Shown here: in pieces, positions 6,272 through 37,476 of the stretch
Position numbering within the stretch: the first letter of the stretch is position 1
How the letters are laid out: each line of letters begins with the position of its first letter
From: Bryobacterales bacterium
GTDB lineage: Bacteria > Acidobacteriota > Terriglobia > Bryobacterales > UBA6623
Length of the DNA stretch: 64,000 bases
Assembly: GCA_965261065.1 (NCBI GenBank)
Contig: OZ253444.1
Location: forward strand, 3,526,382 to 3,590,381
Reading direction: 5' to 3'
The notes under the pieces: generated by a model
Databases searched by the model: none
The model's input: only the letters and a program-made list of their open reading frames with translations
What the model was told of the DNA's origin: nothing
Position numbers and translations under genes: made by a program

Positions 6272-7552
6272 TTAGCCGGCCTTGTCGAGCAGGGTGAGGC
6301 TTACGTTGTGGTTCTCGACCATCTCCTTGGTCACCACGAACTTCTTGACCATCTTCTTCGACGGCAGGTAGTACATCAAGTCGAGCATCAACTCTTCCAG
6401 AATCATCCGCAGCCCGCGAGCACCGACTTTACGTTCCAGCGCTAGCGCGGCGATCGACTGCAGTGCGTCTTCCTCGAAGGTCAGTTCGATGTTTTCGAAT
6501 TCGAACAGCTTCTGGTACTGGCGGATCAACGAGTTCTTCGGACGGGTCAAGATCTCCATCAAGGCCGCTTCGTTGAGGTCGCTCAGAACCGTGCTGACCG
6601 GCAGGCGTCCGACGAATTCCGGAATGAATCCATGGCGGATCAGATCCTGCGGCTGGACCTGCGCAAGCAACTTGGCGTCTCTCTCCCCGCCTTCGAGCTT
6701 CCCGGGAGCGGGTTTTTCCTCATGGTTTTCAGCCGAGCGGAAGCCCACCACCCGATGGTTCAGCCGGCGTCCGATGATCTTCTCGAGCCCGATGAACGCT
6801 CCACCGCAAATAAACAAGACGTTCGTCGTATCCACTGGCGTGAACTCTTGATGGGGATGCTTGCGGCCTCCTTGCGGAGGCACGTTTGCGATCGTTCCTT
6901 CGAGGATCTTGAGCAGCGCCTGTTGAACGCCTTCGCCCGAGACGTCGCGCGTGATGGACGGGTTCTCGTCCTTACGGCTGAGCTTGTCGATCTCGTCGAT
7001 GTAGATGATGCCCTGCTGTGCCTTTTGGACATCGCCGTCCGCCGACTGCAGTAGCTTGAGGATGATGTTCTCGACGTCCTCGCCCACATAGCCCGCCTCA
7101 GTGAGCGTGGTGGCGTCGGCGATGGCGAACGGAACTTCCAGTATCCTAGCCAGCGTTTGCGCCAACAGCGTCTTACCAGTGCCGGTCGGTCCGATCAGCA
7201 GGATGTTGGACTTCTGCAACTCGACGTCGTCGTTCGAGCGCTGTTTCGTCATGAAGACGCGCTTGTAGTGGTTGTAGACGGCGACGGCGAGGTTCTTCTT
7301 GGCCCGCTCCTGGCCGACCACATACTGGTCGAGCTGTTCGCTCAGTTCCTGCGGCTTGAGGAGAGTCAACGCACCGCCGGCCGGCTGCTCGCGGCGGTCG
7401 TCCTCAAGGATTGAGTTGCAGACCGCAACGCATTCGTCGCAGATGTAGGCCTTGGGGTAGTCGCCGGGCGTGGAAATCAGCTTCCCAACAACTTCTTGGG
7501 TCTTGTGACAGAAAGAGCAGCGGAGCGTTTCGTCCGATCCGTTTCGCTTCAC
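6272..7552 (-). CDS. clpX: ATP-dependent Clp protease ATP-binding subunit ClpX
   Basis: 426 aa with an N-terminal zinc ribbon (CSFCHK...CDEC), Walker A GPTGTGKT and Walker [10 protein letters not shown]. Confidence 0.95.
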
Positions 7553-7741
7553 CCGAGACTCCTTGGGCCGGTGATGCCTTCAGTCGCTCGAAGCCCGGCG
7601 CGGGAACAGGCTGATTTCATCTTCAACTATCCTACGATTACCTTACCATGGCATCAGATCCAATCCGCAACAAACCTTAGGGGCCGGCTAGTCTTGGTTC
7701 GGGCCGGATCTGTAAGCCGGGCGCGTCCCGGGGGGACGGTT

Positions 7742-7753
7742 GGGGGGGGGGGG
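7742..7753. repeat. G12 homopolymer in the divergent clpX/pta intergenic region
   Basis: Read directly: t-gggggggggggg-t. Confidence 0.9.
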
Positions 7754-7993
7754 TGCTGGAACGCGATGCCTTTTCGGCGCTTCGAAAGCCGTCGGCCGGT
7801 GAACACCCCGCGGCATGATTTCGGCATCAGTGCAACGGTGGTTGGTCGTTCTAGGCCGCTACCCGTTCTGTGATGTGAACAGGCGCCCGGTTGGGAAGCA
7901 ACGGCCCGGCTGGATTGCGGCAAGAACCCCGCTCGACGGCTTGCGCCGCGCGCCATTGGTCATTCCAGACAAGCCTTCGCTAAGATCGGTGAG

Positions 7994-8968
7994 ATGTCAG
8001 TGTTCCTCGATAGCGTCGTCGCCCGCGCTCGCACACTCAACAAGCGGGTCGTCTTCCCCGAGGGCGACGATGAACGCGTTCAGGCGGCGGCTGAGCGCCT
8101 GGCCCGGGACCACGTCCTCGCACCCATCCTGGTCAGCACGAACGACAACGCGCCGGCGGGCGTGACCATCCTCCATCCCAAGACCTACGCTCATGCCGAC
8201 CGCCACGTGCGTCTACTCCTCGAGCGCCGCCGGGCCAAGGGCATGACCGAGCGCGAGGCGCGAGACACAGCCGCGCAGCCACTGTACTTTGCCTCCCTGC
8301 TGCTGGCCCACGGAGAAGCCGACGGTCTCGTCGGCGGCGCCGGCAATACCACGGCCGAAACCGTGCGGGCGGCGATCTACTGTCTCGGCATCAAACCGCG
8401 GTACCGGTTGATGTCGAGCTTCATGATGCTTGTCCATCCCAACGAGAGCTTCGGCAGCCGCGGCGTGCTCGTGTTCGCGGACGCCGCTGTCGTACCCGAC
8501 CCGAATGCCGGACAGCTCGCCGACATTGCCATTGCTACTGCTGAGAACACGCGCAAGTTCCTCTCCGACCCGCCCCGCGTAGCGATGCTTTCGTTTTCGA
8601 CCAAAGGGAGCGCCCGCCACCCCATGGTCGAGAAGGTCGCCGAGGCCGTGCGGATCGTGCAACAGCGCGCGCCCGAGCTCACCATCGACGGAGAGTTGCA
8701 GGCCGACGCCGCGCTGGTCGTGTCGGTCGGACGGAGCAAAGCACCGGGTTCCCCAGTCGCAGGCCGCGCCAACGTGCTCATCTTTCCCGATCTCAATTCG
8801 GCCAATATCGGCTACAAGCTCGCTGAGCGTCTCGGCGGCGCGCAGTCGCTCGGCCCGTTCCTGCAGGGGCTCTCGAAACCCGCCAACGACCTATCCCGCG
8901 GCTGCTCGGCCGACGACATCTACTACGTCGCCGCCATCACGGCTCTTCAGGCTCAGAAAGAAGTGTAG
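7994..8968 (+). CDS. pta: Phosphate acetyltransferase
   Basis: 324 aa starting [29 protein letters not shown]..., with the PTA_PTB-type core ...[14 protein letters not shown]...SFSTKGSA...[10 protein letters not shown]. Confidence 0.85.
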
Positions 8969-9022
8969 CCGTGGCGCTGGCGTTCGAGCTTGTCTTCCTC
9001 TGCCTCAACGGGCCGAGGCTAC

Positions 9023-9150: not shown

Positions 9151-10380
9151 TAGTATATCGTTTCAATAAAACATACTCATACAGCAACGGTTCCTGCTAG
9201 GCTGAAGGCATGGCAGGAAAGTAGAAGCGTCTCAAGCTGCAACTCAGCCCCGCAGAGGTGCAGCATCTGGAGCGGCTGCGTGGTTCGCGGACGGCTCCGG
9301 TTCGGGAGGTGCAGAGAGCTGAGATTCTGTGGCGTTATCATTCCGGCGAGACCATTGCCGAGATTATGCGAACCGTGAAGATGACCCGCAAAAGCGTCGG
9401 CAAATGGATCGATCGAGCCCTCGCCATGGGCGTGGAAGCAGCGCTCAAGGATGCCTATCATCGTCCCCAGCAGCCCCTCATCACCGCCGATGCCAAGGCC
9501 TGGGTGGTGCATTTGGCCTGTAGCAAACCCAAGCAACTCGGTTACGCCGCCGAACTCTGGACCCGCAGTGCGCTGACTCTACACGTGCGCCGGCATGCCG
9601 TGGAAGCAGGCTATCCGGCGTTGGACCAAGCGGCTAAGGCGACCGTCCACCGGATCCTGGCCGAGCAACCTCTGCATCCAGAGAAGGTGAAGTACTACCT
9701 GGAGCGTCGCGATCCCGATTTTGAGTCCAAGATGCGGCAGGTGTTGCTGGTCTACCGCGAAGTGGCTTGGCAGAATGAAAGCCCTCGCGACGGCCTCTCG
9801 CCGGAGGTGATCACGGTTTCGGTAGACGAGAAGCCCGGCGTGCAAGCGATCGCCAACGTCGCGCCGGACCTGCCGCCGAAGCCTGGGCGGCATCCCAGCG
9901 TGGCTCGCGATTACGAGTACAAACGTCTAGGAACTTGCTCGATTCTGGCGGCGCTGGACTTGCATAGCGGTCGGGTGACGGCGCGGGTGGAGCGGCGTCA
10001 CCGCAGTCGGGAATTCATCTTGCTGCTCCAGGATCTGGACCAATTTTACCCGGACGAGTGCACGATCCGATTGATCTTGGACAATCATTCCTCGCACATA
10101 TCGAAGGAGACGAAAGCCTACTTGGCGACGCGTCCGAACCGCTTCAAATATGTGCATACGCCCACCCACTGGTCCTGGCTCAACATAGTCGAGACGCTGT
10201 TTGGCAAGATGGCGCGCACATTCTTAAAGCGAATACGAGTCGAGTCCTGGGCGGAGCTTCGGGAACGAATCCTGAAAGGAATCGCGGAGATCAACGCCGC
10301 TCCAGTCGTTCACCGCTGGAGGAAGTTCGAGTCGCTTGAGGTCACCTAGAGTGGGTATGTTTTAGTGAAACTATATACTA
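9151..10380 (+). mobile_element. IS630-family element, type A (my label), copy 1
   Basis: The 1226-bp body (9153-10378) is flanked by TA on both sides. It has ~30-bp imperfect terminal inverted repeats (GTATATCGTTTCAATAAAACATACTCA / complement of TGGGTATGTTTTAGTGAAACTATATAC). A near-identical copy lies at 28149-29378. Confidence 0.9.
9258..10349 (+). CDS. IS630-family DDE transposase
   Basis: 363 aa counted from GTG 9258, with an HTH N-terminus and DDE contexts VSVDEKPG, LILDNHSSH and SWLNIVETLF. An upstream in-frame ATG (9210) is separated from the ORF by TAG at 9222-9224. Confidence 0.9.
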   Translation: MQHLERLRGSRTAPVREVQRAEILWRYHSGETIAEIMRTVKMTRKSVGKWIDRALAMGVEAALKDAYHRPQQPLITADAKAWVVHLACSKPKQLGYAAELWTRSALTLHVRRHAVEAGYPALDQAAKATVHRILAEQPLHPEKVKYYLERRDPDFESKMRQVLLVYREVAWQNESPRDGLSPEVITVSVDEKPGVQAIANVAPDLPPKPGRHPSVARDYEYKRLGTCSILAALDLHSGRVTARVERRHRSREFILLLQDLDQFYPDECTIRLILDNHSSHISKETKAYLATRPNRFKYVHTPTHWSWLNIVETLFGKMARTFLKRIRVESWAELRERILKGIAEINAAPVVHRWRKFESLEVT

Positions 10381-11996: not shown

Positions 11997-14792
11997 ATGG
12001 TTGGCCGCACCATCTCGCACTACAAGATCCTCGATAAGCTCGGGGAGGGCGGCATGGGCGTGGTCTACAAGGCCGAAGACACCCGACTCGACCGGTTGGT
12101 GGCGCTGAAGTTCCTGTCCGTCAGTGAGCGCACCGACGAAGAGGACAAGGCGCGTTTCGCGCGCGAGGCCCGAGCCGCCGCCGCCCTCGACCACCCCAAC
12201 ATCTGCACCGTCTACGAAATCGACGAGGTGGAAGGCCGCTCGTTCATCGCGATGGCCTTCTTGAAAGGCCGAACCGTGCAGCAGATGGTCGAGACCGCGC
12301 CGGTCCCGATCGACGCGGCGTTGGACCTAGCCATGCAAGCCGCCAAGGGGCTCGCGGCGGCCCACCAGAACGGCATCGTTCACCGCGACATCAAGAGCGC
12401 CAACCTGATGGTCACCAACCCCACCGCGGGCAGCGAAGCGCAACTGAAGATCATGGACTTCGGCTTGGCGCAACTCACCGCCGGAGCCAGCAAGCTCACC
12501 GTCGAAGGATCCACTTTGGGGACCGCCGCCTACATGTCTCCGGAGCAGGCCCGCGGCGACAAGGTGGATCACCGCACCGATCTTTGGTCGCTCGGCGTGG
12601 TGTTCCACGAACTGATCACCGGGCAATTGCCATTTCGCGGCGAGTACGAGCAGGCGATCATCTACTCGATCCTCCACGAACCCCCCGAGCCGATCAGCTC
12701 GCTACGTAGTGGAGTAGGCCTCGAGCTCGAGCGCATTGTCAACAAGGCCCTGGCAAAGGACCCCGACGACCGCTACCAAAGCGCTGTGGATCTACTTGTC
12801 GATCTACGTACGCTCAGGAAGGAGCGCGAGTCGATCGTAAGCCGCATCACTCATCCCTCGCACGTCACACAGGCGCACGCCACCCAGGCGGGGACGCCTA
12901 CGGCTTCGGCGTCTGCCCGTATGGGTAAGCCAGCAGCCCCGACCATGGGCAGCGCGGGGACTACCACGCAAGGGGCTCCCTCTGCCGCTCCGCATCGGCA
13001 TCCCTTCTTCCATCGCAGGTGGGTCAAGTTTGCAGGGCTGGGGCTCGCGCTGTTCGTCGTGTTCGTTGCCGCGCGATGGGTGCCGCCCATGTGGGATCGA
13101 CCAATGGGGAAGATGGACGGGCCGCTGTTTGGTTGGCGTGGACGCGGGGAGCCGCCGCGAATCGCCCCCATCACGAGCGATGCGGGGATTGAATCCTTCG
13201 CCTCGTTCTCGCCCGACGCCAGCCAGATTGCCTACACCTGGGACGGCGGGAGCGGAGGCAACTCGAACATCTACGTCAAGCTCATCGACGGCGGGGCCTC
13301 GCTGCGCCTCACCGACAGCTCCGCCATCGACAGCAGCCCCGCCTGGTCGCCCGACGGCCGCAACATAGCCTTCCTGCGCTACCAGCGCGGATCCGCGGGC
13401 GTCTACCTCGTCCCGCCCATCGGCGGGGCCGAACGCAAGATCGCCGACGTCCGGATTCCGCGGCGCAGTCATGTGCTCCGAAACTTGGCCTGGTCACCGG
13501 ACGCCAAGCACCTGGTCCTGGTCGAGGGAGGCGCAGCCGGGGAGCCGGGTGGAACCCAGCTGCTCACGATCAGTAGCGGCGAGCGCACCGCGATTCTCGA
13601 AGGCAGGCGGCGGGGCGGCTTCCGTCACAGCCCTGCGTTCTCACCCGATGGCCGCGCGATCGCCTTCCTGCAGTCCGTGGGCTTGAGCGCTGACGACATC
13701 TACATCGTGAGGCTCGACCAGGATCTTCAAGCAGCCGGCGAGCCGCGGCGAGTGACGGAAGATGAAGCGCGCATCGACGGCCTGGTTTGGGCGGTGGACG
13801 GTGAATCGATCATCTTCTCGTCCGAACGCAACGGCCAAAGGGGGCTGTGGCGTGTACCGGCCCGCGGCGGCCGGATCTTTCCCCTGCCCGGCGCCGGCGA
13901 GGGCGCCCGGCTTCCCGCCGTCTCCGCCGACGACAGCAAGCTCGCGTACACACGGTCGATGCGGGATCTCAACATCTGGCGCCAGAGCCTGGCAGGGGAC
14001 ACCGAGCCCGAACCGCTGATCCGTTCCACCCGCCTCGACCATCTGCCGCGCTATTCGCCCGACGGCCGCCGTATCGCCTTCATCTCTGACCGCACGGGTA
14101 GCATGCAGCTCTGGGTGGCCGACAACGACGGGACCAACGCGCTTCAGCTCACCTCCTACGAGGGCGAGTTGGTCACCCTGCCAAACTGGTCCGCCGATAG
14201 CCGCCGCATCGCGGTGCAAGTCATTGAGCGCGACCGCTCCCACATCGACCTGGTGAACGTCGAAGACCGCTCTCGCCGCCGTCTCGAACTCCCCGAGGAG
14301 GGCGGCATCGCTCCCTCTTGGTCGCACGACGGCCGATGGATCTACCTTACCCGTCGCTTCCAGGGTGTGTGGAAGTTCCCGATTCCCGATGGTGTTGACG
14401 CCGGCGCTGAACCGGTGCAGGTCGTTGCCGCCGGCGGCTTTGCGCAGGTATCGCCGGACGGCAAGTACCTCTATTTGCTTACGCGGGGACGTAGCGAAGG
14501 AGGTGTCATGCGGGTGCCGCTCGATGGCGGGGAAGAGTCGGTACTCCCTATCCAAGCAGCCCGCGGCCAGTTTACGGTCACGGAGTCCGGCATCTACTTC
14601 CTCGGTCGAGGCGGCGATTTCAACCTGTTCGACTTCGCGACAGGCCAAGTGAAGACGCTCGCAACCATCGAGGGCGTGGCAGACGGCTTCCGGGCTGCCT
14701 CATTCTCGGTTTCACCCGACGGTCGCTCGCTGCTGTTCGTCCGCAACGACCGCAACGAAGCCGACCTGATGCTGATCGAAAACCTGCGCTAA
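11997..14792 (+). CDS. Ser/Thr protein kinase fused to TolB-like beta-propeller repeats
   Basis: 931 aa with Hanks-kinase motifs GEGGMGVVYKA, HRDIKSANL and DFG, then a TM segment, then about 9 repeats of the (W/F/Y)SPDG(R/K)xIAF type. Confidence 0.85.
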   Translation: MVGRTISHYKILDKLGEGGMGVVYKAEDTRLDRLVALKFLSVSERTDEEDKARFAREARAAAALDHPNICTVYEIDEVEGRSFIAMAFLKGRTVQQMVETAPVPIDAALDLAMQAAKGLAAAHQNGIVHRDIKSANLMVTNPTAGSEAQLKIMDFGLAQLTAGASKLTVEGSTLGTAAYMSPEQARGDKVDHRTDLWSLGVVFHELITGQLPFRGEYEQAIIYSILHEPPEPISSLRSGVGLELERIVNKALAKDPDDRYQSAVDLLVDLRTLRKERESIVSRITHPSHVTQAHATQAGTPTASASARMGKPAAPTMGSAGTTTQGAPSAAPHRHPFFHRRWVKFAGLGLALFVVFVAARWVPPMWDRPMGKMDGPLFGWRGRGEPPRIAPITSDAGIESFASFSPDASQIAYTWDGGSGGNSNIYVKLIDGGASLRLTDSSAIDSSPAWSPDGRNIAFLRYQRGSAGVYLVPPIGGAERKIADVRIPRRSHVLRNLAWSPDAKHLVLVEGGAAGEPGGTQLLTISSGERTAILEGRRRGGFRHSPAFSPDGRAIAFLQSVGLSADDIYIVRLDQDLQAAGEPRRVTEDEARIDGLVWAVDGESIIFSSERNGQRGLWRVPARGGRIFPLPGAGEGARLPAVSADDSKLAYTRSMRDLNIWRQSLAGDTEPEPLIRSTRLDHLPRYSPDGRRIAFISDRTGSMQLWVADNDGTNALQLTSYEGELVTLPNWSADSRRIAVQVIERDRSHIDLVNVEDRSRRRLELPEEGGIAPSWSHDGRWIYLTRRFQGVWKFPIPDGVDAGAEPVQVVAAGGFAQVSPDGKYLYLLTRGRSEGGVMRVPLDGGEESVLPIQAARGQFTVTESGIYFLGRGGDFNLFDFATGQVKTLATIEGVADGFRAASFSVSPDGRSLLFVRNDRNEADLMLIENLR

Positions 14793-24987: not shown

Positions 24988-25851
24988 CTACAAGATTTTC
25001 GCTAGGGTTGAGCCCATCTCCGCGGGAGACGGAGCAACGGCGATGCCCGCAGCCTCGAGCGCTGCTACCTTTTCGGCTGCGGTGCCTTTGCCGCCGGAGA
25101 TGATCGCGCCGGCGTGCCCCATGCGGCGTCCCGGCGGGGCTGTGCGGCCCGCGATGAAGGAGACAACGGGTTTCTTCACGTTGTCTTTGATAAACGCGGC
25201 GGCTTCTTCCTCGGCCGTCCCGCCGATCTCACCGATCATGATCACCGCGTGGGTGTCGGGGTCGTCGTTGAACAGGCCCAGGGTGTCAACAAAGCTCGTC
25301 CCTATGATGGGGTCTCCGCCGATGCCGATGCAGGTGGATTGCCCGATGCCGAGCGTGCTGAGCTGTCCGACCGCTTCGTAGGTCAGCGTTCCGGAACGCG
25401 ACACCACGCCGACGTTCCCTTGCTTGTGGATGTAGCCGGGCATGATGCCAAGCTTCGACTTGCCGGGGGAAATGATCCCCGGGCAGTTCGGCCCGATCAG
25501 CCTCGTCCGGCTGCCTCGAAGCCCATAGCTCACCTTGACGAGGCCCTGCGCCGGGATGCCTTCGGTGATACAGACGACGATCTCGATCCCGGCGTCCGCG
25601 GCTTCCAAGATGGCGTCCGCCGCGCCCGCCGCCGGCACGAAAACGATCGAGGCGTTGGGCTGGACGGCGTCCACCGCCTCGCTGACGGTGTTGAACACCG
25701 GCAAGCCAAGTTGCTCGGTCCCGCCTTTGCCCGGCCGCACCCCTCCGACCACTTTGGCTCCGTAGTCCATGCACTGCTGGGCGTGGAACGAGCCCGCCTT
25801 GCCGAAGCCCTGCACTAGGATGCGTGTATTCTCGTCGAGAAGAATGCTCAT
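24988..25851 (-). CDS. sucD: Succinyl-CoA synthetase alpha subunit
   Basis: 287 aa with GFGKAGSFH and the phosphohistidine loop [17 protein letters not shown]. Confidence 0.95.
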
Positions 25852-25866
25852 GACTCGCTGTGTCGA

Positions 25867-27027
<1,161 letters not shown>

Positions 27028-27112
27028 GAAGCGGAGAAGCGCGTGCTACGATCTGGGGACTCTTGAAGATGAAAGCTCATCATAGGGGATCTCCCGAGGG
27101 GAGCGCAAACCC

Positions 27113-28147
27113 ATGAGCGCCGTTAGGGAAGCGCTGCATAAGGCCGCGCGCCGCGCCGATTTAAGCGAGCCGGAAGCGCTCGCGGTGATGAACGAAATCC
27201 TCTCCGGCGAGTCCACCCCGACACTGATCGGCGCGCTACTGGTCGCGCTCAGCATGAAGGGCGAGACGGTTGACGAGGTCGTCGGTTTTGCCCGCGCCAT
27301 GCGCTCGCAGGCGGCGAAAATCCCTTGCAAGACGGCGGCTTCCGAGCTGGTCGATACCTGTGGTACCGGCGGCGATGGCTCGCAATCATTCAATATCTCG
27401 ACCGTCAGCGCCTTCGTCGTCGCCGGGGCGGGGGCGCATGTCGCCAAGCACGGCAACCGCTCGATCTCGAGCCGCTGCGGCAGCGCGGATGTCTTGGAAG
27501 CGACGGGGGTGAACGTCGGTCTGACGCCTGAGCAGATGGCCCGCTCGATTGACGAGGTCGGCATCGGGTTCCTTTTCGCTCCGGCGATTCACACCGCCAT
27601 GAAGCATGCCGGGCCGGTGAGGGCGGAGTTGAAGATGCGGACCGTCTTCAACGTGCTTGGGCCGCTGACGAATCCGACCGGGGCTTCGGCCCAGGTGTTG
27701 GGCGTGTTTGAAGATCGTTTGACGCCGATGCTTGCGGAAGCGCTGGCTCACCTGGGCACGGCGCGCGCGTTTGTGGTCCACGGCAGCGACGGGTTGGACG
27801 AGATCACTACGACCGGGGCCACCCGAGTGGCGGAGGTCTCAGGCGGAGCGGTTAGCGAGAGAACGTTGACACCCAATGACTTCGGTCTGCCTCGCGCCGC
27901 GCCGCACGACTTAGCCGGGGGTGGCCGCGAGGAGAACGCCGCGATCCTGCGCGCGATTCTTGACGGGACGAGAGGGCCCAAACGCGACATCGTGCTGGCC
28001 AACGCATCCGCCGCGCTGGTTGCGGCGGGCCGGGCGGGCGACTTTCGCGAAGGTGTTGGGCTGGCCGGGGCGTCCATCGACGGAGGCAAGGCGGCGGAGA
28101 AGCTCGACGAGTTGGCGCGCTTCACGCAGCAGTTCTCGTCGGACTAA
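27113..28147 (+). CDS. trpD: Anthranilate phosphoribosyltransferase
   Basis: 344 aa with DTCGTGGDGSQSFNIST and KHGNRSISS. Confidence 0.9.
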   Translation: MSAVREALHKAARRADLSEPEALAVMNEILSGESTPTLIGALLVALSMKGETVDEVVGFARAMRSQAAKIPCKTAASELVDTCGTGGDGSQSFNISTVSAFVVAGAGAHVAKHGNRSISSRCGSADVLEATGVNVGLTPEQMARSIDEVGIGFLFAPAIHTAMKHAGPVRAELKMRTVFNVLGPLTNPTGASAQVLGVFEDRLTPMLAEALAHLGTARAFVVHGSDGLDEITTTGATRVAEVSGGAVSERTLTPNDFGLPRAAPHDLAGGGREENAAILRAILDGTRGPKRDIVLANASAALVAAGRAGDFREGVGLAGASIDGGKAAEKLDELARFTQQFSSD

Positions 28148-28148
28148 C

Positions 28149-29378
28149 TAGTATATAGTTTCACTAAAACATACCCACTCTAGGTGACCTCAAGCGACTC
28201 GAACTTCCTCCAGCGGTGAACGACTGGAGCGGCGTTGATCTCCGCGATTCCTTTCAGGATTCGTTCCCGAAGCTCCGCCCAGGACTCGACTCGTATTCGC
28301 TTTAAGAATGTGCGCGCCATCTTGCCAAACAGCGTCTCGACTATGTTGAGCCAGGACCAGTGGGTGGGCGTATGCACATATTTGAAGCGGTTCGGACGCG
28401 TCGCCAAGTAGGCTTTCGTCTCCTTCGATATGTGCGAGGAATGATTGTCCAAGATCAATCGGATCGTGCACTCGTCCGGGTAAAATTGGTCCAGATCCTG
28501 GAGCAGCAAGATGAATTCCCGACTGCGGTGACGCCGCTCCACCCGCGCCGTCACCCGACCGCTATGCAAGTCCAGCGCCGCCAGAATCGAGCAAGTTCCT
28601 AGACGTTTGTACTCGTAATCGCGAGCCACGCTGGGATGCCGCCCAGGCTTCGGCGGCAGGTCCGGCGCGACGTTGGCGATCGCTTGCACGCCGGGCTTCT
28701 CGTCTACCGAAACCGTGATCACCTCCGGCGAGAGGCCGTCGCGAGGGCTTTCATTCTGCCAAGCCACTTCGCGGTAGACCAGCAACACCTGCCGCATCTT
28801 GGACTCAAAATCGGGATCGCGACGCTCCAGGTAGTACTTCACCTTCTCTGGATGCAGAGGTTGCTCGGCCAGGATCCGGTGGACGGTCGCCTTAGCCGCT
28901 TGGTCCAACGCCGGATAGCCTGCTTCCACGGCATGCCGGCGCACGTGTAGAGCCAGCGCACTGCGGGTCCAGAGTTCGGCGGCGTAACCGAGTTGCTTGG
29001 GTTTGCTACAGGCCAAATGCACCACCCAGGCCTTGGCATCGGCGGTGATGAGGGGCTGCTGGGGACGATGATAGGCATCCTTGAGCGCTGCTTCCACGCC
29101 CATGGCGAGGGCTCGATCGATCCATTTGCCGACGCTTTTGCGGGTCATCTTCACGGTTCGCATAATCTCGGCAATGGTCTCGCCGGAATGATAACGCCAC
29201 AGAATCTCAGCCCTCTGCACCTCCCGAACCGGAGCCGTCCGCGAACCACGCAGCCGCTCCAGATGCTGCACCTCTGCGGGGCTGAGTTGCAGCTTGAGAC
29301 GCTTCTACTTTCCTGCCATGCCTTCAGTCTAGCAGGAACCGTTGCTGTATGAGTATGTTTTATTGAAACGCTATACTA
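28149..29378 (-). mobile_element. IS630-family element, type A, copy 2 (inverted relative to copy 1)
   Basis: The 1226-bp body (28151-29376) is flanked by TA and differs from copy 1 by a few substitutions. Its left TA lies 2 nt after the trpD stop. Confidence 0.9.
28180..29271 (-). CDS. IS630-family DDE transposase (copy 2)
   Basis: 363 aa, identical to the copy 1 protein except Thr/Ala in RSAL[T/A]LHV. The same upstream ATG (29319) and in-frame TAG (29305-29307) are present. Confidence 0.9.
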   Translation of the reverse strand: MQHLERLRGSRTAPVREVQRAEILWRYHSGETIAEIMRTVKMTRKSVGKWIDRALAMGVEAALKDAYHRPQQPLITADAKAWVVHLACSKPKQLGYAAELWTRSALALHVRRHAVEAGYPALDQAAKATVHRILAEQPLHPEKVKYYLERRDPDFESKMRQVLLVYREVAWQNESPRDGLSPEVITVSVDEKPGVQAIANVAPDLPPKPGRHPSVARDYEYKRLGTCSILAALDLHSGRVTARVERRHRSREFILLLQDLDQFYPDECTIRLILDNHSSHISKETKAYLATRPNRFKYVHTPTHWSWLNIVETLFGKMARTFLKRIRVESWAELRERILKGIAEINAAPVVHRWRKFESLEVT

Positions 29379-31340
29379 GGCCGCGCCGCGACGCTGATCT
29401 GCGCGCTAGAACTCGAACGCCAGCAAGATGTGACGAAGCTGGGCGAGTGGCCGTTCGAAATCGGACTGTGGGTCGGCAGAGCGGCGACGCCGAACCGCAT
29501 GGGCTCGAAAGATGACAACTACCCGGACACCGCCAGGCGTAAGACGATTTCCTTTTGGAACGACAGCAGCAAGCCGGCACCGATCCCGTTGGAGGAGTGC
29601 CCGTGGTGCGGCACCAAATTCCAGCGTGAGTCGTTCCGATTGTCTGCCAATGGCAAGGCGAATCGCGACAACCCAACGGACCTGACCGTCGCCTGCCTGA
29701 ACAGGAAATGCGACTTCACGCGGGACCGCCCGCTGCCGATTCTGGCTGTGGATGAACCGATCTATCGGCGACTGCCTTGCTTCCTGATCGCGACAGTAGA
29801 CAAGTTCGCTGCCCTCCCCTGGAAGGGAGAAACCGGCAAGTTCTTCGGACGCGCGGATCGCTACGACCGGCAAGGGTTCTACGGTCCGTGCGAGCCCGGC
29901 AGAGGAACGTTGCTACCTGAGGGCAGGCTGGCGCCTCCGGAACTCATCATTCAAGACGAGTTGCACTTGATTTCGGGTCCGCTCGGAACGATGGCCGGAT
30001 TGTATGAAACCGCGCTGGACGCGCTCTCGGTCATCGAGAAGGATGGTCACAAGATACGGCCGAAGATTGTGGCTTCGACGGCGACGGTCCGGCGCGCCGA
30101 GACACAGATTCGGGCTCTGTTCGATCGACGCACAGTGGATATCTTTCCGCCGCCCGGTCCCGATAGATGCGACTCGTTCTTTGCGGAGACCCTTTCACCG
30201 GAGCAGAGCAACGCCCGGCTGTATCTGGGCGTCGCGGCGCAAGGACGCAGCCCGAAGGTTGTAATGTTGCGTGTGTATCTGGCGCTGCTCGGCGCCGGAG
30301 AAAGATGGTACACGGCCCCGAAAAAGAAGGCCGACCCGGAAAATCCCGCCGACCCGTATATGACGCTCGTCGGCTATTTCAACGCTTTGCGTGAGTTGGG
30401 CGGAGCCAGAAGACTCATCGAGGACGAGATCCGGAACCGTCTCGCGGGTTATGCGTCCCGCCGACGCGCCGGTGAAGAAGAGGGATTGTTCGTTAATCGC
30501 AAGATCGAGTATGAACCCGTCGAGCTGACCAGTCGAATCGATACCGGGCGGGTGGCCGAGGCGAAGCAGCGACTGGCGCTCGCTTTCTCCGAAGACAAGA
30601 AGGTGGATGTCGCCATCGCAACGAACATGATCTCGGTCGGTCTCGACATTGTACGGCTGGGCCTGATGGTGGTCTTTGGTCAGCCGAAGACCAGCTCGGA
30701 ATACATCCAGGCTACGAGCCGCGTTGGCCGCGATCCCGAGCGGCCCGGTCTCGTCGTGACAATCCTGAACGTCCACAAGCCGCGTGACCGTTCGCACTAC
30801 GAGCGCTTCGCGGCCTATCACGAGACGTTCTACCGGAGCGTTGAGGCGACCAGCGTCACGCCGTTTTCGCCCCGTGCGCTCGACAAGGGTTTGGCGGCGA
30901 CGCTGGTTGCGATGGCGCGGCACGGGTTCGACGTTTTGACGCCGCCGCGCGGTGCGGCCGAGATTCTGAAGCACAGGACCGAACTGGACTCGGTGGTCGA
31001 TTCCTTGAGTCAACGTGCGTACGGTCACAGCCTTGGCTCCGACGCGGAGAGAGATCGCCTGAAGCAGAGGGTGCGGCAACGAGCGTTGGATCTGCTGGAT
31101 GACTGGTCGAAGGTAGCTCAGGAGCAGCAAAATGTCGGCGCGGGCTTGCAGTACAACGCCGCCGAGGTTGGAGCAGCGGCCCCATTGCTTTACGACTATC
31201 TGAGTCCAGACGTTAAGAACCTGCCACCTACCCATTGGAAGATGAAGTTTCGCGCGAATCGCTCCCTTCGAGACGTCGAAGCGGCGGTGAACCTCTGGGT
31301 GAGGACGATGGACAACGTGGATCTCGAGGAGGACCAGTAG
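29379..31340 (+). pseudogene. drmA: DISARM DrmA-like SF2 helicase, 5'-truncated at the IS630 boundary
   Basis: The frame is open from the IS junction (LGRAATLICALELERQQDVTKLGEW...). Motif II is IIQDELHLISGP, helicase-C motifs are IATNMISVGLDI and QATSRVGRD, and there is a Cys4 ribbon (CPWCG...CLNRKC). Motif I and an RBS-linked start are missing. Confidence 0.7.
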
Positions 31341-32325
31341 GATGCCCCGGAAGAAAGAGAAGCGTCCTCACGGTGAGATCCGCCAGAGTCAGATACTTAC
31401 GACGTTTGGTCCGGGTTCGATGACGGATCTGCCCAAGCACTCGGTGTTGATTGGCGGACTCGACTACTGGCTTGGAAGCCGGGATGCGATCAGCGAACCA
31501 CGGTTGGCCCGGAAGCTGGCAAAAATTCTTGAAGTGCCGACTTTGCGTCTTGAGACGCCGCCCCCCGCTGATGATGATCCGACAGCCCCGCCGAGTGGGG
31601 TTCGGGTTTTTCAGTTCCCGGAATGGTTTGTTACCCAGGATGTGGAGAGCAAGCAGGCGGACTCGGCTACGCGATCTCGCCTTCTCGTGCACCGCCGGGC
31701 GCTGACTCGCGGAAAGTATCGTGATCGCGATAAGAAAGCACGTCCGGTTGTGCCAGTTCGCTTCGTGAGAGCGTGTCATGGGGGCCACATCGGCGACATC
31801 GACTGGTATGTATTCGTGCATGAAGGCCAGTCAGAGTGCAAGTCCCTGCGCCGACAACTCTACCTCGATGAGCGAGGCACCAGCGGCGATCTTGCGGAGG
31901 TCTTCATCCGATGCGAATGCGGCAAGGCGGATAGGAGCATCGCCCAGGCAGCAAAGTTGGGGGATCGGCCGTTAGGATTATGCGACGGCGCGAGGCCCTG
32001 GCTTGGCCCTGCGATGAAGGAGAAATGCAACGATCAGAACCGATTGCTCGTCCGGACGGCCTCGAACGCCTATTTCCCCCAAACGTTGAGCGTGATCTCG
32101 CTGCCGGACCGGAACGAAGCCGTTCAGCAAGCTGTGAGCGCGGTTTGGGACTTCTTAGAGGCAGCCGAGAGTCTCGAAAACGTTCAGAGAGAACGCAAGA
32201 AAGCCAAGGTTCAGCAGGGCCTGGATGGTATTACCGACGAGGAAGCATGGTCGGAGATTGAAGCGCGGCGTGGCGTATCTGACGGCGAAGAGAAGTCGGT
32301 GAAGGCAGCCGAACTGGAAACCCTA

Positions 32326-33489
32326 GTGTAGTGCGTCAAGCAGATTGCACCTTATGCAGGGCGGCACGTCCTCGCTTGACTTTCTCGAGGATGTCGGAGG
32401 CGGTCGCTGTCCAGATGAAGGGCGTGGGATGCTCGTTGTGCTGGGCGATGTAGTCGTCAATGGCGGCGACGAGCTCGTCCACGCTGCGAAACACGCCGCG
32501 GCGCAGGCGCTTGACGGTGAGATCGCGAAAGAATCGCTCGACCATGTTCAGCCACGACGCCGAGGTCGGGGTGAAATGAATGTGGAAGCGCGGGTGACGA
32601 TCGAGCCAACGCTTCACAGCGGCATGCTTGTGGGTGGCATAGTTGTCCACGATGAGATGAAGCTGTTTGTCCTTGGGAGTGCGGCGGTCAATTAAGCGCA
32701 GGAAGCGCAACCATTCCTGGTGGCTGTGTCGGGGCATGCACTCGGCGATCACGCTGCCGTCAAGAGTGTTGAGCGCCGCAAACAGGGTGGTCGTGCCGTT
32801 GCGCTTGTAATCGTGGGTCATCGTTTGGCCGCGTCCCTTTTTGAGCGGCAGGCCGGGTTGGGTGCGATCGAGGGCTTGGATTTGGGACTTCTCATCGAGC
32901 GAGAGAACCAGAGCATGCTCAGGCGGATTGAGATAGAGTCCGACGATGTCGTCGAGTTTCTCGGCGAAACGCGGGTCATTGCTGAGCTTGAAGGTCTTGA
33001 CGCGGTGGGGCTTGAGGCCATGGGCGCGCCAAATCCGTCCCACGGTGGAAGCGCTGACGCCGGCCGCGGCGGCCATGGTGCGGCGGCTCCAGTGTGTGGC
33101 GTTGGACGGTTTCTCGCGGGTGGTCTTGTGGATGATCTGCTGTACTTTCTGCTTCGAGACGGCAGGTGTACGACCGGGCCGTGGGGCGTCTTTTGCAATG
33201 CCGGCGATGCCGCTTTCGAGAAAGCGCGTGCGCCAGCGGGCCACCAACTGCCGCGAGACACCGAGCTGTGCGGCGATCTGCTTATTCTCGAGACCGTGGG
33301 CGGCCAGCAGGACAATCCTGGCTCGCAGGGCGAGACGAACGGCGACTTGGCGGCCGCGCGCGTAGCGGTCCAACTGCTTGCATTGCGCTGTGTTCAAAGT
33401 TACTGGTTGTGCTCTTCGCATCCCATGCCTCCTGTTAATAGAGACGATGGGAAGCCAATGTAAGTTACAGTATTTATGGTGCACTACAC
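32326..33489 (-). mobile_element. IS630-family element, type B (my label), tandem copy 1
   Basis: 1164 bp with terminal GTGTAGTGC inverted repeats, flanked by TA (32324-25 and 33490-91). Confidence 0.85.
32336..33421 (-). CDS. IS630-family DDE transposase (type B)
   Basis: 361 aa from ATG 33421 ([17 protein letters not shown]...), with AGGAGG upstream. DDE contexts are [17 protein letters not shown] and [10 protein letters not shown]. The longer listed ORF reads through into the neighbouring copy. Confidence 0.9.
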
Positions 33490-33491
33490 TA

Positions 33492-34655
33492 GTGTAGTGC
33501 GTCAAGCAGATTGCACCTTATGCAGGGCGGCACGTCCGCGCTTGACTTTCTCGAGGATGTCGGAGGCGGTCGCTGTCCAGATGAAGGGCGTGGGATGCTC
33601 GTTGTGCTGGGCGATGTAGTCGTCAATGGCGGCGACGAGCTCGTCCACGCTGCGAAACACGCCGCGGCGCAGGCGCTTGACGGTGAGATCGCGAAAGAAT
33701 CGCTCGACCATGTTCAGCCACGACGCCGAGGTCGGGGTGAAATGAATGTGGAAGCGCGGGTGACGATCGAGCCAACGCTTCACAGCGGCATGCTTGTGGG
33801 TGGCATAGTTGTCCACGATGAGATGAAGCTGTTTGTCCTTGGGAGTGCGGCGGTCAATTAAGCGCAGGAAGCGCAACCATTCCTGGTGGCTGTGTCGGGG
33901 CATGCACTCGGCGATCACGCTGCCGTCAAGAGTGTTGAGCGCCGCAAACAGGGTGGTCGTGCCGTTGCGCTTGTAATCGTGGGTCATCGTTTGGCCGCGT
34001 CCCTTTTTGAGCGGCAGGCCGGGTTGGGTGCGATCGAGGGCTTGGATTTGGGACTTCTCATCGAGCGAGAGAACCAGAGCATGCTCAGGCGGATTGAGAT
34101 AGAGTCCGACGATGTCGTCGAGTTTCTCGGCGAAACGCGGGTCATTGCTGAGCTTGAAGGTCTTGACGCGGTGGGGCTTGAGGCCATGGGCGCGCCAAAT
34201 CCGTCCCACGGTGGAAGCGCTGACGCCGGCCGCGGCGGCCATGGTGCGGCGGCTCCAGTGGGTGGCGTTGGACGGTTTCTCGCGGGTGGTCTTGTGGATG
34301 ATCTGCTGTACGTTCTGCTTCGAGACGGCAGGTGTACGACCGGGCCGTGGGGCGTCTTTTGCAATGCCGGCGATGCCGCTTTCGAGAAAGCGCGTGCGCC
34401 AGCGGGCCACCAACTGCCGCGAGACACCGAGCTGTGCGGCGATCTGCTTATTATCGAGACCGTGGGCGGCCAGCAGGACAATCCTGGCTCGCAGGGCGAG
34501 ACGAACGGCGACTTGGCGGCCGCGCGCGTAGCGGTCCAACTGCTTGCATTGCGCTGTGTTCAAAGTTACTGGTTGTGCTCTTCGCATCCCATGCCTCCTG
34601 TTAATAGAGACGATGGGAAGCCAATATAAGTTACAGTATTTATGGTGCCCTACAC
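33492..34655 (-). mobile_element. IS630-family element, type B, tandem copy 2
   Basis: 1164 bp, head-to-tail with copy 1 and sharing the TA at 33490-91; the outer TA is at 34656-57. One inverted-repeat mismatch (GTGTAGGGC). Confidence 0.85.
33502..34587 (-). CDS. IS630-family DDE transposase (type B)
   Basis: 361 aa. It differs from the other copy at E/D (HGL[E/D]NKQ) and K/N (SKQ[K/N]VQQ). Confidence 0.9.
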
Positions 34656-35499
34656 TAGTGGCCGCGCGAGAGGAGATCGGTGAAGACCGGCCTGAGGGCG
34701 TTTTCTATGCGCGATCACTGCCTAGAGCCGCGTGGGACAGGCCTTGGATGGCGAGCATTGAGCGCGTCGTTCTTATCCATCGTTTGCGCGAGGTTGTGGC
34801 GTCGGTCGGTTTCACCCGATTTGAATCGGCCTCCGCCGATTTCGAGGGTGAGCTGGATATGGGTGTCCGCCGGGCATCGTTGGCACGCGATATATCGTGG
34901 CTGCCCGCAGTTGAGAATAAGGGAGAAGGCTTCTTCATTCAGTTCAAGAAGTCAGCAATTGACGAGTGGCTGCTAGAGCCTGGCGTCCAGTCGAGAACTG
35001 CCGCCTTGAATCGGGGTTTTCAGGCCTGGAGTCGGGAGCACTCTGGGGCCGGCCGGAAGTTTCCCCGTCCGGAGCACATCATGCTCCACTCGGTGTCGCA
35101 TCTTTTACTCACCGCGGTTTCCTTGCAGTGTGGGTATCCGGCCAGCTCAATTCGGGAACGAGTGTATGCCATACCGAGTATCGGATACGGGATTCTTCTG
35201 TACACAGGCAGTTCGGATGCTGAAGGTACGTTGGGCGGGTTGGTGGAGGTAGGCCGCAACATTCACGAATCCCTGCGTGACGCTCTGGAGATGGCCCAGC
35301 TGTGTTCCAATGACCCGGTCTGCGCTCAGCATGAGCCCGAGAGCGGGCATGAGCACCGCTACCTACATGGCACCGCTTGTCATGGATGCGTGCTCGTTGC
35401 GGAAACCAGTTGCGAGCAGCAGAACGATTTCCTTGATCGCGCGCTTGTAGTCTGGACGGTTGAGGCGGAGGGCGCAGAGTTCTTCCCGGAGATCAAACC

Positions 35500-36291
35500 T
35501 TGAGCGAAGAACTCTTCAATCTCCCACCCGCGGACCTACGTGTACTCGCATCGGCGGTCCGCTCCGGGAGACTAACCGTGCCGTCTTCCGGTGCCGGGGT
35601 CGAAAGATTCGTGGGGCGCGAAGGCTCCGACGAGGTGTCCAAAGCGCTGGGGGATCTCCAATCTGCCGGCTGCTCACAGGAAGGTGTCGCTCGCTGTTTA
35701 GAAATGCTGGCCGCCGGAGCCGAGACACAGCGCGGACTGGACGAGGCCGTGCAAGTCGTGACCACGGGGCCCGAGATGGCAGCCGTTGCGAACCGGGACA
35801 CGATGGTTGTTGTGCAGGAGATGTTTCGGCGGGCCGAGCGGAGCGTCTTGGTCTCCGGGCATACGGTTTTCGAGGGCCGAAAGGTGTTTCGGGAGCTTGC
35901 CGCCAGAACGCTCGAACTCCCTGATCTGCAAGTCCGGATGTTCCTTGACATCCGCAGGAAGGCTGGCGACACGTCGCTTGACTCGGAGATCGTTTGGCGC
36001 TTCGTCGATCACTTTCGACGCGCGCACTGGCCCGAGGGCTGTCCGCTGCCGCAGATCTACTACGATCCTCGGTCATTGGCTTCGGATCGGCAAAAGCAGG
36101 CAGTCTTGCACGCGAAGTGCGTTGTCGCGGACGATTCCGAGCTGTTTGTGTCCTCGGCCAACTTTACCGAGGCGGCGCAGGTGCGGAACATCGAGCTTGG
36201 GCTGCTTCTGCGGTCGTCCGCACTTGCCTCCCAGGTAGGCAACTTCTTCGACTCGCTCGTCGAATCCGGACACTGCCAGCGGGCAAATTGA
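35500..36291 (+). CDS. drmC: DISARM DrmC-like PLD/HKD-domain protein
   Basis: 263 aa with HKD motif LHAKCVVADDSELFVSSANFTEAAQVRNIELG. Its TTG start overlaps the drmB stop (TTGA). Confidence 0.7.
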   Translation: MSEELFNLPPADLRVLASAVRSGRLTVPSSGAGVERFVGREGSDEVSKALGDLQSAGCSQEGVARCLEMLAAGAETQRGLDEAVQVVTTGPEMAAVANRDTMVVVQEMFRRAERSVLVSGHTVFEGRKVFRELAARTLELPDLQVRMFLDIRRKAGDTSLDSEIVWRFVDHFRRAHWPEGCPLPQIYYDPRSLASDRQKQAVLHAKCVVADDSELFVSSANFTEAAQVRNIELGLLLRSSALASQVGNFFDSLVESGHCQRAN

Positions 36292-36706: not shown

Positions 36707-37476
36707 TCAAGCCGTTTGTTTGGCCGCTTCGCCATGCTCTGCTCTCTGGATAGTTTTGGCAGCCCTACGACGAGCCGTTGAGGTGCGGTAGGCCCTGCGG
36801 ACTGTGGTGGCCCCAACGCCAAGCTTCGATGCAATCTGGGACCAGCTCATGTCCTCCTGATCGCGCAGCCGCACTACCTCGTCTCGGTCGAACACCATCC
36901 TCGGTCGGCCAATTCGTTTCCCCAACGCCAGTGCTCGCTCGTGCCCCGCTTTGATCGCGTCGACACGCTCCTCGTTCTCCATTTCGGCAAACCATGCTTG
37001 AATCGCCCAGAGCAGCTTGCCCATGGTAGAGCTGATCGCGCCGGTCTGAGACTTCACCGGCACCACGGTCACTTCTGCGTCCGCCAGTTCGTAGACGGTC
37101 GAGATGACCTCACGCATGTCGCGGCCGAGACGTGAGACCTTCCAGACCAGCAAGCGATCGAACTTACGGAGCGCGGCATCCCTCTTCATTCGCTCGAACA
37201 TCGGACGAGATCGGGCGCCCTTGCGACCAGACTTCCCTTGCTCGACGTAGATGTACTGATCAGCGAGACGATCAGCGACGACCTGGTTGACGCGATAGAC
37301 CGTTCGTGGAGGATCTGGGCCCCGGACTTCTTCCGCGACGATGCAGTAGGAGAGATCGTCAGGACCTGACCCCAGTCACGAGGCGACCCGTCCTTCTCAG
37401 CTACTGCAAGCAAGTCCTGGAACTGGTTCTCGCTAGTTTGTCGGTCACTGGAGACCCGGAAATACAAAGCATCCAC
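36707..37476 (-). pseudogene. Serine recombinase/resolvase, frameshifted
   Basis: The N-terminal ORF (37186-37476) begins MDALYFRVSSDRQTSENQ, which contains the catalytic Ser. The remainder sits in another frame (36707-37201): FDRLLVWKVSRLGRD... and HTH MSWSQIASKLGVGATTVRRAY. Confidence 0.75.

Follow-up and report, generated by a model that had tools for sequence, protein, structure and literature searches.

The closest described relatives of the element considered here are IS630 of Shigella sonnei and ISY100 of Synechocystis. Both are insertion sequences (ISs) of about 1.15 kb with a single open reading frame (ORF) for a helix-turn-helix (HTH) plus DDE_3 transposase, short terminal inverted repeats and a duplication of the target dinucleotide TA. 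ISY100 moves by cut-and-paste, i.e., as a linear excised fragment that integrates at TA, with no circle or dimer intermediate (PMC2170065). Its target is described in PMC6400869 as TA with little preference for context, and the preference of IS630 for the TA inside CTAG is attributed to Tenzen et al. (1990, 1991), as cited in PMC2170065. An element with all of these features, including the preference for CTAG, is present as two abutted copies inside drmB, a gene of a DISARM defence locus, in a stretch of 64,000 nucleotides from a Bryobacterales bacterium of the Acidobacteriota (contig OZ253444.1, positions 3,526,382–3,590,381), referred to below as the window. The two copies were probably, on balance, acquired by two successive cut-and-paste insertions into one original CTAG of drmB. 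Our literature searches found no report of tandem pairs of IS630 or ISY100, and no description of tandem, dimer or head-to-tail pairs for bacterial IS630-family elements in general (older subscription papers being thinly covered by these searches), which agrees with the preliminary description of the locus, where such pairs were said to be apparently undescribed.

Tandem copies of other transposons are well documented. In Drosophila, dimers of the P element, hobo and R1 with the structure TSD-TE-TSD-TE-TSD (TSD, target-site duplication; TE, transposable element) arise from double insertion, which is favoured at sites that match the preferred target of the element (McGurk and Barbash, 2018, PMC5932611). 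Bacterial tandem transposon dimers are among the cases cited in the same work (Dalrymple, 1987; Prudhomme et al., 2002). The drmB pair resembles the Drosophila dimers in retaining the target duplication at the internal junction, but it is bacterial and its target is regenerated by the terminal bases of the element. In Drosophila melanogaster, the Tc1-like Bari1 forms head-to-tail arrays of about 80 copies in heterochromatin, and its units lack the first two nucleotides and have no intact target-site duplication at their junctions (PMC8834629). The drmB pair belongs to the same superfamily as Bari1 and is likewise precisely head-to-tail, but it consists of two complete units and its TA is intact.

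Copy A (32326–33489) and copy B (33492–34655) are each 1164 bp long, lie on the minus strand and follow each other in direct orientation as TA-IS-TA-IS-TA with a period of 1166. Direct reading of 32200–34800, a repeat finder and a script agreed on these limits. The left TA (32324–32325) forms a regenerated CTAG together with C32323 and G32326, and so does the right TA (34656–34657) with C34655 and G34658. A single TA (33490–33491) is common to the abutted ends, where the sequence reads GCACTACAC-TA-GTGTAGTGC. The terminal inverted repeats of the element, GTGTAGTGC and GCACTACAC, are perfect over 9 nt, with copy B having the variant GCCCTACAC as its transposase-proximal repeat. No third copy of the 1164-bp element was found by script elsewhere in the window. 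Six substitutions, and no indels, distinguish the copies, at IS positions 47, 770 and 821 (T in A and G in B at all three), 962 (C in A, A in B), 1135 (G in A, A in B) and 1158 (A in A, C in B). Of the six, two are synonymous and two missense (E45D and K92N), with all four coding differences at third codon positions; the remaining two fall in the leader and the transposase-proximal inverted repeat, respectively.

Both transposase genes (32336–33421 in A and 33502–34587 in B, minus strand) are intact and encode 361 aa, with E45 and K92 in copy A and D45 and N92 in copy B. The product matches the IS630-family model NF033545 of NCBIfam over positions 2–299 of 299 with 293.9 bits (cut-off 100), and the Pfam domains DDE_3, HTH_32, HTH_29 and HTH_23 are over their cut-offs. 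Judging by motif position, D176, D259 and E295 are the putative catalytic residues. We assume, by analogy with the family, that these copies also transpose by cut-and-paste with double-strand cleavage at both ends. Exact-protein look-ups of the transposase, and also of DrmC (see below), gave no matches. In contrast to IS630 and ISY100, the pair belongs to a distinct acidobacterial clade characterized by GTGTAGTGC termini.

The pair splits drmB into a 5′ fragment (31342–32325, plus strand, codons 1–328), whose last two bases are the left TA of the CTAG target, and a 3′ fragment (34658–35503, plus strand, codons 329–609 and the stop), which carries the MZB/DUF1998 zinc-binding domain (PF09369). 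The 5′ fragment was delimited from the ORF list, PADLOC and the alignment of homologues. Removal of 32326–34657 joins the two fragments into an open protein of 609 aa (...AAELETL|[14 protein letters not shown]...) that matches PADLOC DrmB over residues 11–593 (E 1.6e-75) and aligns without gaps across the junction with intact homologues of 71–86% identity and with one of 99%. The preliminary description had therefore read the structure correctly on several counts, i.e., two direct 1164-bp copies with one TA between them and TA outside, differing at a few positions (E/D, K/N and one inverted-repeat base), belonging to the IS630 family and inserted into drmB in such a way that precise removal restores a frame of about 610 codons.

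Searching for exact matches to the protein of the adjacent trpD gene, and to the DrmB homologue of 99% identity, brought up three further public contigs of the locus. Two of them contain the pair, including the single TA between the abutted ends. The first, L119 (ERZ25068966, 344 kb, 22x), is collinear with window 17113–38147 with 23 mismatches and no gaps; as in the window, both transposase ORFs are intact. In the second, L120 (ERZ25071132, 1.14 Mb, 47x), the pair is 72 nt shorter due to 11 small deletions (1–29 nt) confined to the two IS copies (L120 15208–17476), which break both transposase ORFs while the flanks are clean; the deletions may reflect true decay or faults of the consensus in tandemly repeated sequence. 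The third sequence, L115 (identical to L121; ERZ25069191, 13 kb, 2x), has the empty site. It is 99.89% identical to window 25122–32328 and then continues directly at 34652 onwards, reading GGAAACCCTAGTGGCC (in the longer reading GGAAACCCTAGTGGCCGCG), with one CTAG and hence a single TA, where the pair keeps a TA at the internal junction and on both outer sides. The presence of the empty site in a contig that is only about 0.1% diverged supports the earlier view that the inactivation of drmB is recent. Over 7.2 kb of flank the window, L119 and L115 are equidistant, with eight differences in each pairwise comparison and four private changes per lineage, and no substitution is common to the two pair-bearing sequences (window and L119). 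Because of this equidistance both steps must be placed on a very short branch.

These contigs also bear on the possibility that an assembler simply wrote one IS copy twice, the outcome that the preliminary description had named as its refutation. From the way their contigs are named, all the available assemblies of the locus seem to have come out of comparable long-read pipelines for metagenomes, and the 11 deletions of L120, confined as they are to the pair, show consensus trouble in the repeat. Yet the pair is found in three separately assembled sequences from different ENA analyses, those at 22x and 47x included, and the T/G difference at position 47 recurs in all three. Moreover, a junction sequence has to exist in the reads to be assembled, and analogous junctions are found in 35 unrelated metagenome contigs (see below). 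Judged from the assemblies, we consider an artefact extremely improbable.

The comparison of the three pair-bearing assemblies changed the meaning of the six differences between the copies. Only that at position 47 (T in A, G in B) is present in all three. The remaining five of the six (33095, 33460, 33483, 34312 and 34453) are private to the window, four of them being transversions, and at each of these sites L119 and L120 have the base that is found in the partner copy and in the consensus of the family. Within L119 the copies differ at two sites. Private substitutions in the window pair amount to about four times the per-lineage rate of the flank (P about 0.01), an excess that may stem from gene conversion with other copies as donors, or from a consensus that is smoothed or noisy in repeats. 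The six differences had been taken as proof of independent donors, a claim that we have withdrawn, since L119 and L120 have only the difference at position 47 in common with the window, which is alone in showing the other five. For the same reason the third-codon-position pattern is weakened as a sign of selection acting before insertion. The count of six lies within the spread of random pairs of dispersed copies (median 4, range 0–10), and exceeds the divergence of the flanks with a P of about 0.002–0.02.

The target of the element could be established from copies located elsewhere. A related Bryobacterales metagenome-assembled genome (MAG) contains at least 13 full dispersed copies, 98.5–98.9% identical to A and B, and in 13/13 the flanks are c-TA...TA-g. 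Two dispersed copies (L010 and L065) share the repeat variant of copy B and are each flanked by TA within CTAG. Over the wider clade (54 delimited elements with transposase identities of 63–99%), CTAG was found at 105 of 107 half-sites, a near-absolute specificity that is unlike the relaxed context of ISY100. The TA was duplicated on both sides in the 13 dispersed copies and the 54 clade members alike. No preference past the four bases of CTAG was detected in the 54 clade elements, and an extended target resembling the IS ends (CACTAGTG) was rejected on these grounds. The GGCAGTACAC-TA flank of L010 was not counted as a further abutted IS end, there being no partner end upstream. CTAG is three-fold under-represented in the window (75 observed against 218 expected from base composition), and 7 of these 75 sites are IS630 junctions. 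Extrapolating from the window count to an assumed genome size of about 8 Mb would give some 7,000–9,000 CTAG sites per genome. GATC and TCGA, for their part, are over-represented in the whole window.

The element starts with 5′-G and ends with C-3′, and its 1164 bp contain no internal CTAG. Each insertion turns one CTAG into two because the target is CTAG, the TA is duplicated and the termini are 5′-G...C-3′. Since the clade's transposase uses the TA of 5′-CTAG-3′ for integration and duplicates it, a first insertion into drmB would have converted its one CTAG into two, C-TA-G(IS) to the left and (IS)C-TA-G to the right. If another copy then entered either regenerated site in the same orientation, the product would be TA-IS-TA-IS-TA with one TA in common, and this is the sequence of events that we propose. 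The near identity of the copies makes it quite possible that the second insertion came from the sister of the first, perhaps after replication. Insertions at such a junction would add no cost to the host and would survive preferentially; the DISARM locus that contained drmB was by then defunct. Nor is any special property of the locus needed for the second insertion, since it is the element's own terminal bases that regenerate the target. The same C-TA-[G...C]-TA-G arrangement is found in an unrelated IS630-family element of the window (IS#1, transposase 30% identical).

If target regeneration is at work, abutted elements should not be confined to drmB, and they are not. We scanned metagenome contigs for the junction pattern GCMCTACACTAGTGTAGKGC and found 35 contigs with an abutted junction, while viral contigs gave no matches to the same pattern. 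Five of them contain head-to-tail pairs of transposase-bearing elements. In L094 a complete c-TA-IS-TA-IS-TA-g is made from two different elements that are 76.6% identical, and the pair in L093 is formed by elements 80% identical; in L088, L095 and L106 the second unit is 100% identical to the first and is cut off by the end of the contig. Two more contigs have inverted abutted pairs (L097 and L099), the latter also with a third end abutted. The remaining junction contigs contain non-coding elements of 45–340 bp with the same termini and up to five junctions per contig. Dense series of units of 45–220 bp with termini GTGTAGGGC...GCCCTACAC, abutted through single TAs, are present in L107 (1–900), with five exact junctions within about 600 bp, and in L085 (1560–1880). 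These look like arrays of MITEs (miniature inverted-repeat transposable elements) made by the same regeneration of the target. Mixed and inverted pairs arise only by insertion beside a resident element, and therefore the re-insertion route operates in the clade.

For the drmB pair we infer an origin by re-insertion instead of duplication. This reading, one of the two that the preliminary description had put forward (the TA duplicate left by one insertion serving as target for another), is favoured by the mixed and inverted abutted pairs; as far as sequence comparison goes, the route is demonstrated in the clade and accounts for all of the arrangements found. Several observations weigh against it. 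The copies were near identical when the pair formed (two differences in L119, with position 47 alone in common), and independent donors are not demonstrated. The very short branch fits a coupled event, such as duplication or the hop of a sister copy, better than two unrelated insertions among the estimated 7,000–9,000 CTAG sites of a genome; a second insertion soon after the first would suit it as well as a duplication. No allele with a single copy at the drmB site, i.e., the expected intermediate, was found in the assemblies retrieved. Finally, abutted pairs were found at none of 79 genome loci and no abutted partner beside any of the 54 delimited elements, so that the event is not frequent; the nearest approaches at genome loci were L020 (1955 bp from start to start) and L002 (copies in inverted orientation, separated by about 3.2 kb). 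The formation of abutted pairs is thus recurrent but not common.

Part of this evidence is equally what one would expect if a single insertion had been duplicated in situ, by unequal sister-chromatid exchange or by replication slippage, an origin that is absent from the preliminary description. A single insertion would be bracketed by CTAGTG...CTAGTG, because the right flank of the target begins with GTG like the left terminus of the IS, and these 6-bp repeats are present at 32323–32328 and 34655–34660. An event between them would copy the IS plus one TA (1166 bp) and so reach the same arrangement with a single transposition. In favour of it, the ancestral pair had only about one difference between its copies, and the branch that carries both steps shows no substitution over the 7.2 kb of flank. 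However, 6 bp of homology over 1.17 kb is a poor substrate, and the recurrence of the position-47 difference in each of the three assemblies means that the copies were perhaps never identical. In addition, duplication in situ cannot yield the heterodimers and inverted abutments of the clade, for which the identical geometry would need a second mechanism. We therefore regard in situ duplication as unlikely, although it is the most serious competitor of re-insertion.

The direct orientation and the abutted ends a few bp apart are also reminiscent of (IS30)2, the IS21 tandems and the dimers and circles of IS911 and IS256. Those are intermediates of replicative or copy-out transposition, with a strong promoter at the junction and high instability. 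The preliminary description had suggested a hyperactive intermediate of this type for the drmB pair, which would then be the product of, or the substrate for, a dimer pathway. Consistent with it are the distance of 2 bp between the abutted ends in direct orientation, as in (IS30)2, the near identity of the copies and the three short-read contigs (L088, L095 and L106) in which a junction to a second unit of 100% identity is reached at the contig end. Against it, what is known in vitro for the family comes from ISY100, whose transposition is purely cut-and-paste and releases the element as a linear fragment (PMC2170065). A scan of 33300–33700 for the general consensus, which is not specific to acidobacterial promoters, detected no sigma-70-type promoter on either strand, and the outward TTGACG is located 23 nt from the nearest AT-rich hexamer. 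The retention of the pair in three lineages about 0.1% diverged, with both ORFs intact in the window and L119, would be unexpected of an unstable, hyperactive intermediate, and heterodimers and inverted pairs do not suit dimerisation. The drmB pair differs from the (IS30)2, IS21 and IS911/IS256 structures in all these respects (mode of transposition, absence of a detected junction promoter and evolutionary retention), leaving the suggestion unsupported and, in our opinion, very unlikely.

Returning to re-insertion as the preferred origin, the host locus offers a setting in which it would have been tolerated. The DrmB gene lies between drmA and drmC, and the Pfam domains found at the locus are Helicase_C (DrmA), MZB (DrmB) and PLDc_2 (DrmC). 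Intact relatives encode an N6-methylase DrmMI of 1316–1356 aa, a DrmA of 1132–1137 aa, DrmB and DrmC. In the window, drmC (35500–36291, plus strand), which codes for a PLD-family nuclease, is intact (PLDc_2; PADLOC DrmC, E 1.3e-81), but drmA (29376–31340, plus strand; PADLOC DrmA models, E 1.8e-242) is truncated, corresponding to residues 484–1137 of the full-length relatives and lacking the first 483 codons (the 5′ 43%). No DrmMI homologue was found anywhere in the 64 kb, so that both the cognate methyltransferase (DrmMI/DrmMII) and the full-length DrmA of a complete DISARM are missing from the window. The truncation of drmA is common to the window, L115, L119 and L120. Since the methylase and the 5′ part of drmA are missing, DISARM was defunct before the insertion into drmB, the functional consequence of which was probably nil. 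By tblastn, base 29376 is exactly where the homology to DrmA starts (residue 484), and this base is also the final one of IS#1 (28151–29376, minus strand, 1226 bp), an element placed at the deletion boundary between trpD, on its other side, and the truncated drmA. The loss at this boundary looks like an IS-associated deletion older than the drmB insertion.

IS#1 is present twice in the window (9153–10378 and 28151–29376), in inverted orientation about 18 kb apart, with four differences over 1226 bp and both copies flanked by C-TA...TA-G. Such copies are a possible substrate for inversion of the intervening segment. A transfer of the missing DISARM genes to the side of the other IS#1 copy by inversion was considered and rejected, the genes being absent there. 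The drmB gene of L115, which has the empty site, carries a different insertion, a 244-bp non-coding MITE-like element (L115 7566–7818, equivalent to window 35010–35018) with inverted repeats of about 20 nt (GGGTATGCACTTGACTCCCG) and a 9-bp duplication (ATCTGGGTT), which neither the window nor any other locus searched contains. In sibling strains, then, drmB was interrupted on separate occasions, once by the IS pair and once by the 244-bp MITE-like element. The DISARM locus is decaying under relaxed selection, a setting where extra IS insertions are tolerated.

Two other genes of the window deserve mention. Near drmC, a resolvase/invertase gene (36707–37476, minus strand) appears in the window as ORFs of 164 and 96 aa and is called as 164 aa in L119 and L120, but it is a single gene of 256 aa in L115; it is frameshifted in one assembly set or the other. 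At 11997–14792 a protein of 931 aa has an N-terminal kinase domain that matches the PADLOC PD-T4-6 models (E 1.9e-92), although it may be a generic Ser/Thr kinase and not a defence gene.

The drmB pair is a further example of a known structure, a double insertion with the target duplication between the copies, and overturns no current understanding. For annotation, it means that tandem IS630 copies with one common TA should not be dismissed as assembly errors. For the biology of defence systems, it documents the stepwise decay of DISARM, which began with the loss, at an IS boundary, of the methylase and of the 5′ part of drmA and continued with independent insertions into drmB in sibling strains. 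For the biology of transposons, a CTAG-specific element with G...C termini doubles its own target with each insertion, a property from which abutted and mixed pairs and arrays of MITEs, such as those found here, are to be expected. We would add a conjecture with a rather slim chance of being right, namely that the G...C termini, by regenerating CTAG, could make elements of this IS630 clade and their MITE derivatives self-seeding or, in a stronger version, that the junction of right and left inverted repeats through TA (IRR-TA-IRL) is a preferred substrate. If the stronger version were true, the pair would move as a unit or its inner ends would be cut together, a mode undescribed for the IS630/Tc1/mariner superfamily. 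If the elements were self-seeding, each insertion would add a selectively free target and pairs, chains and arrays such as those of L099 and L107 would accumulate, providing a bacterial route from a transposon to a tandem-repeat array.

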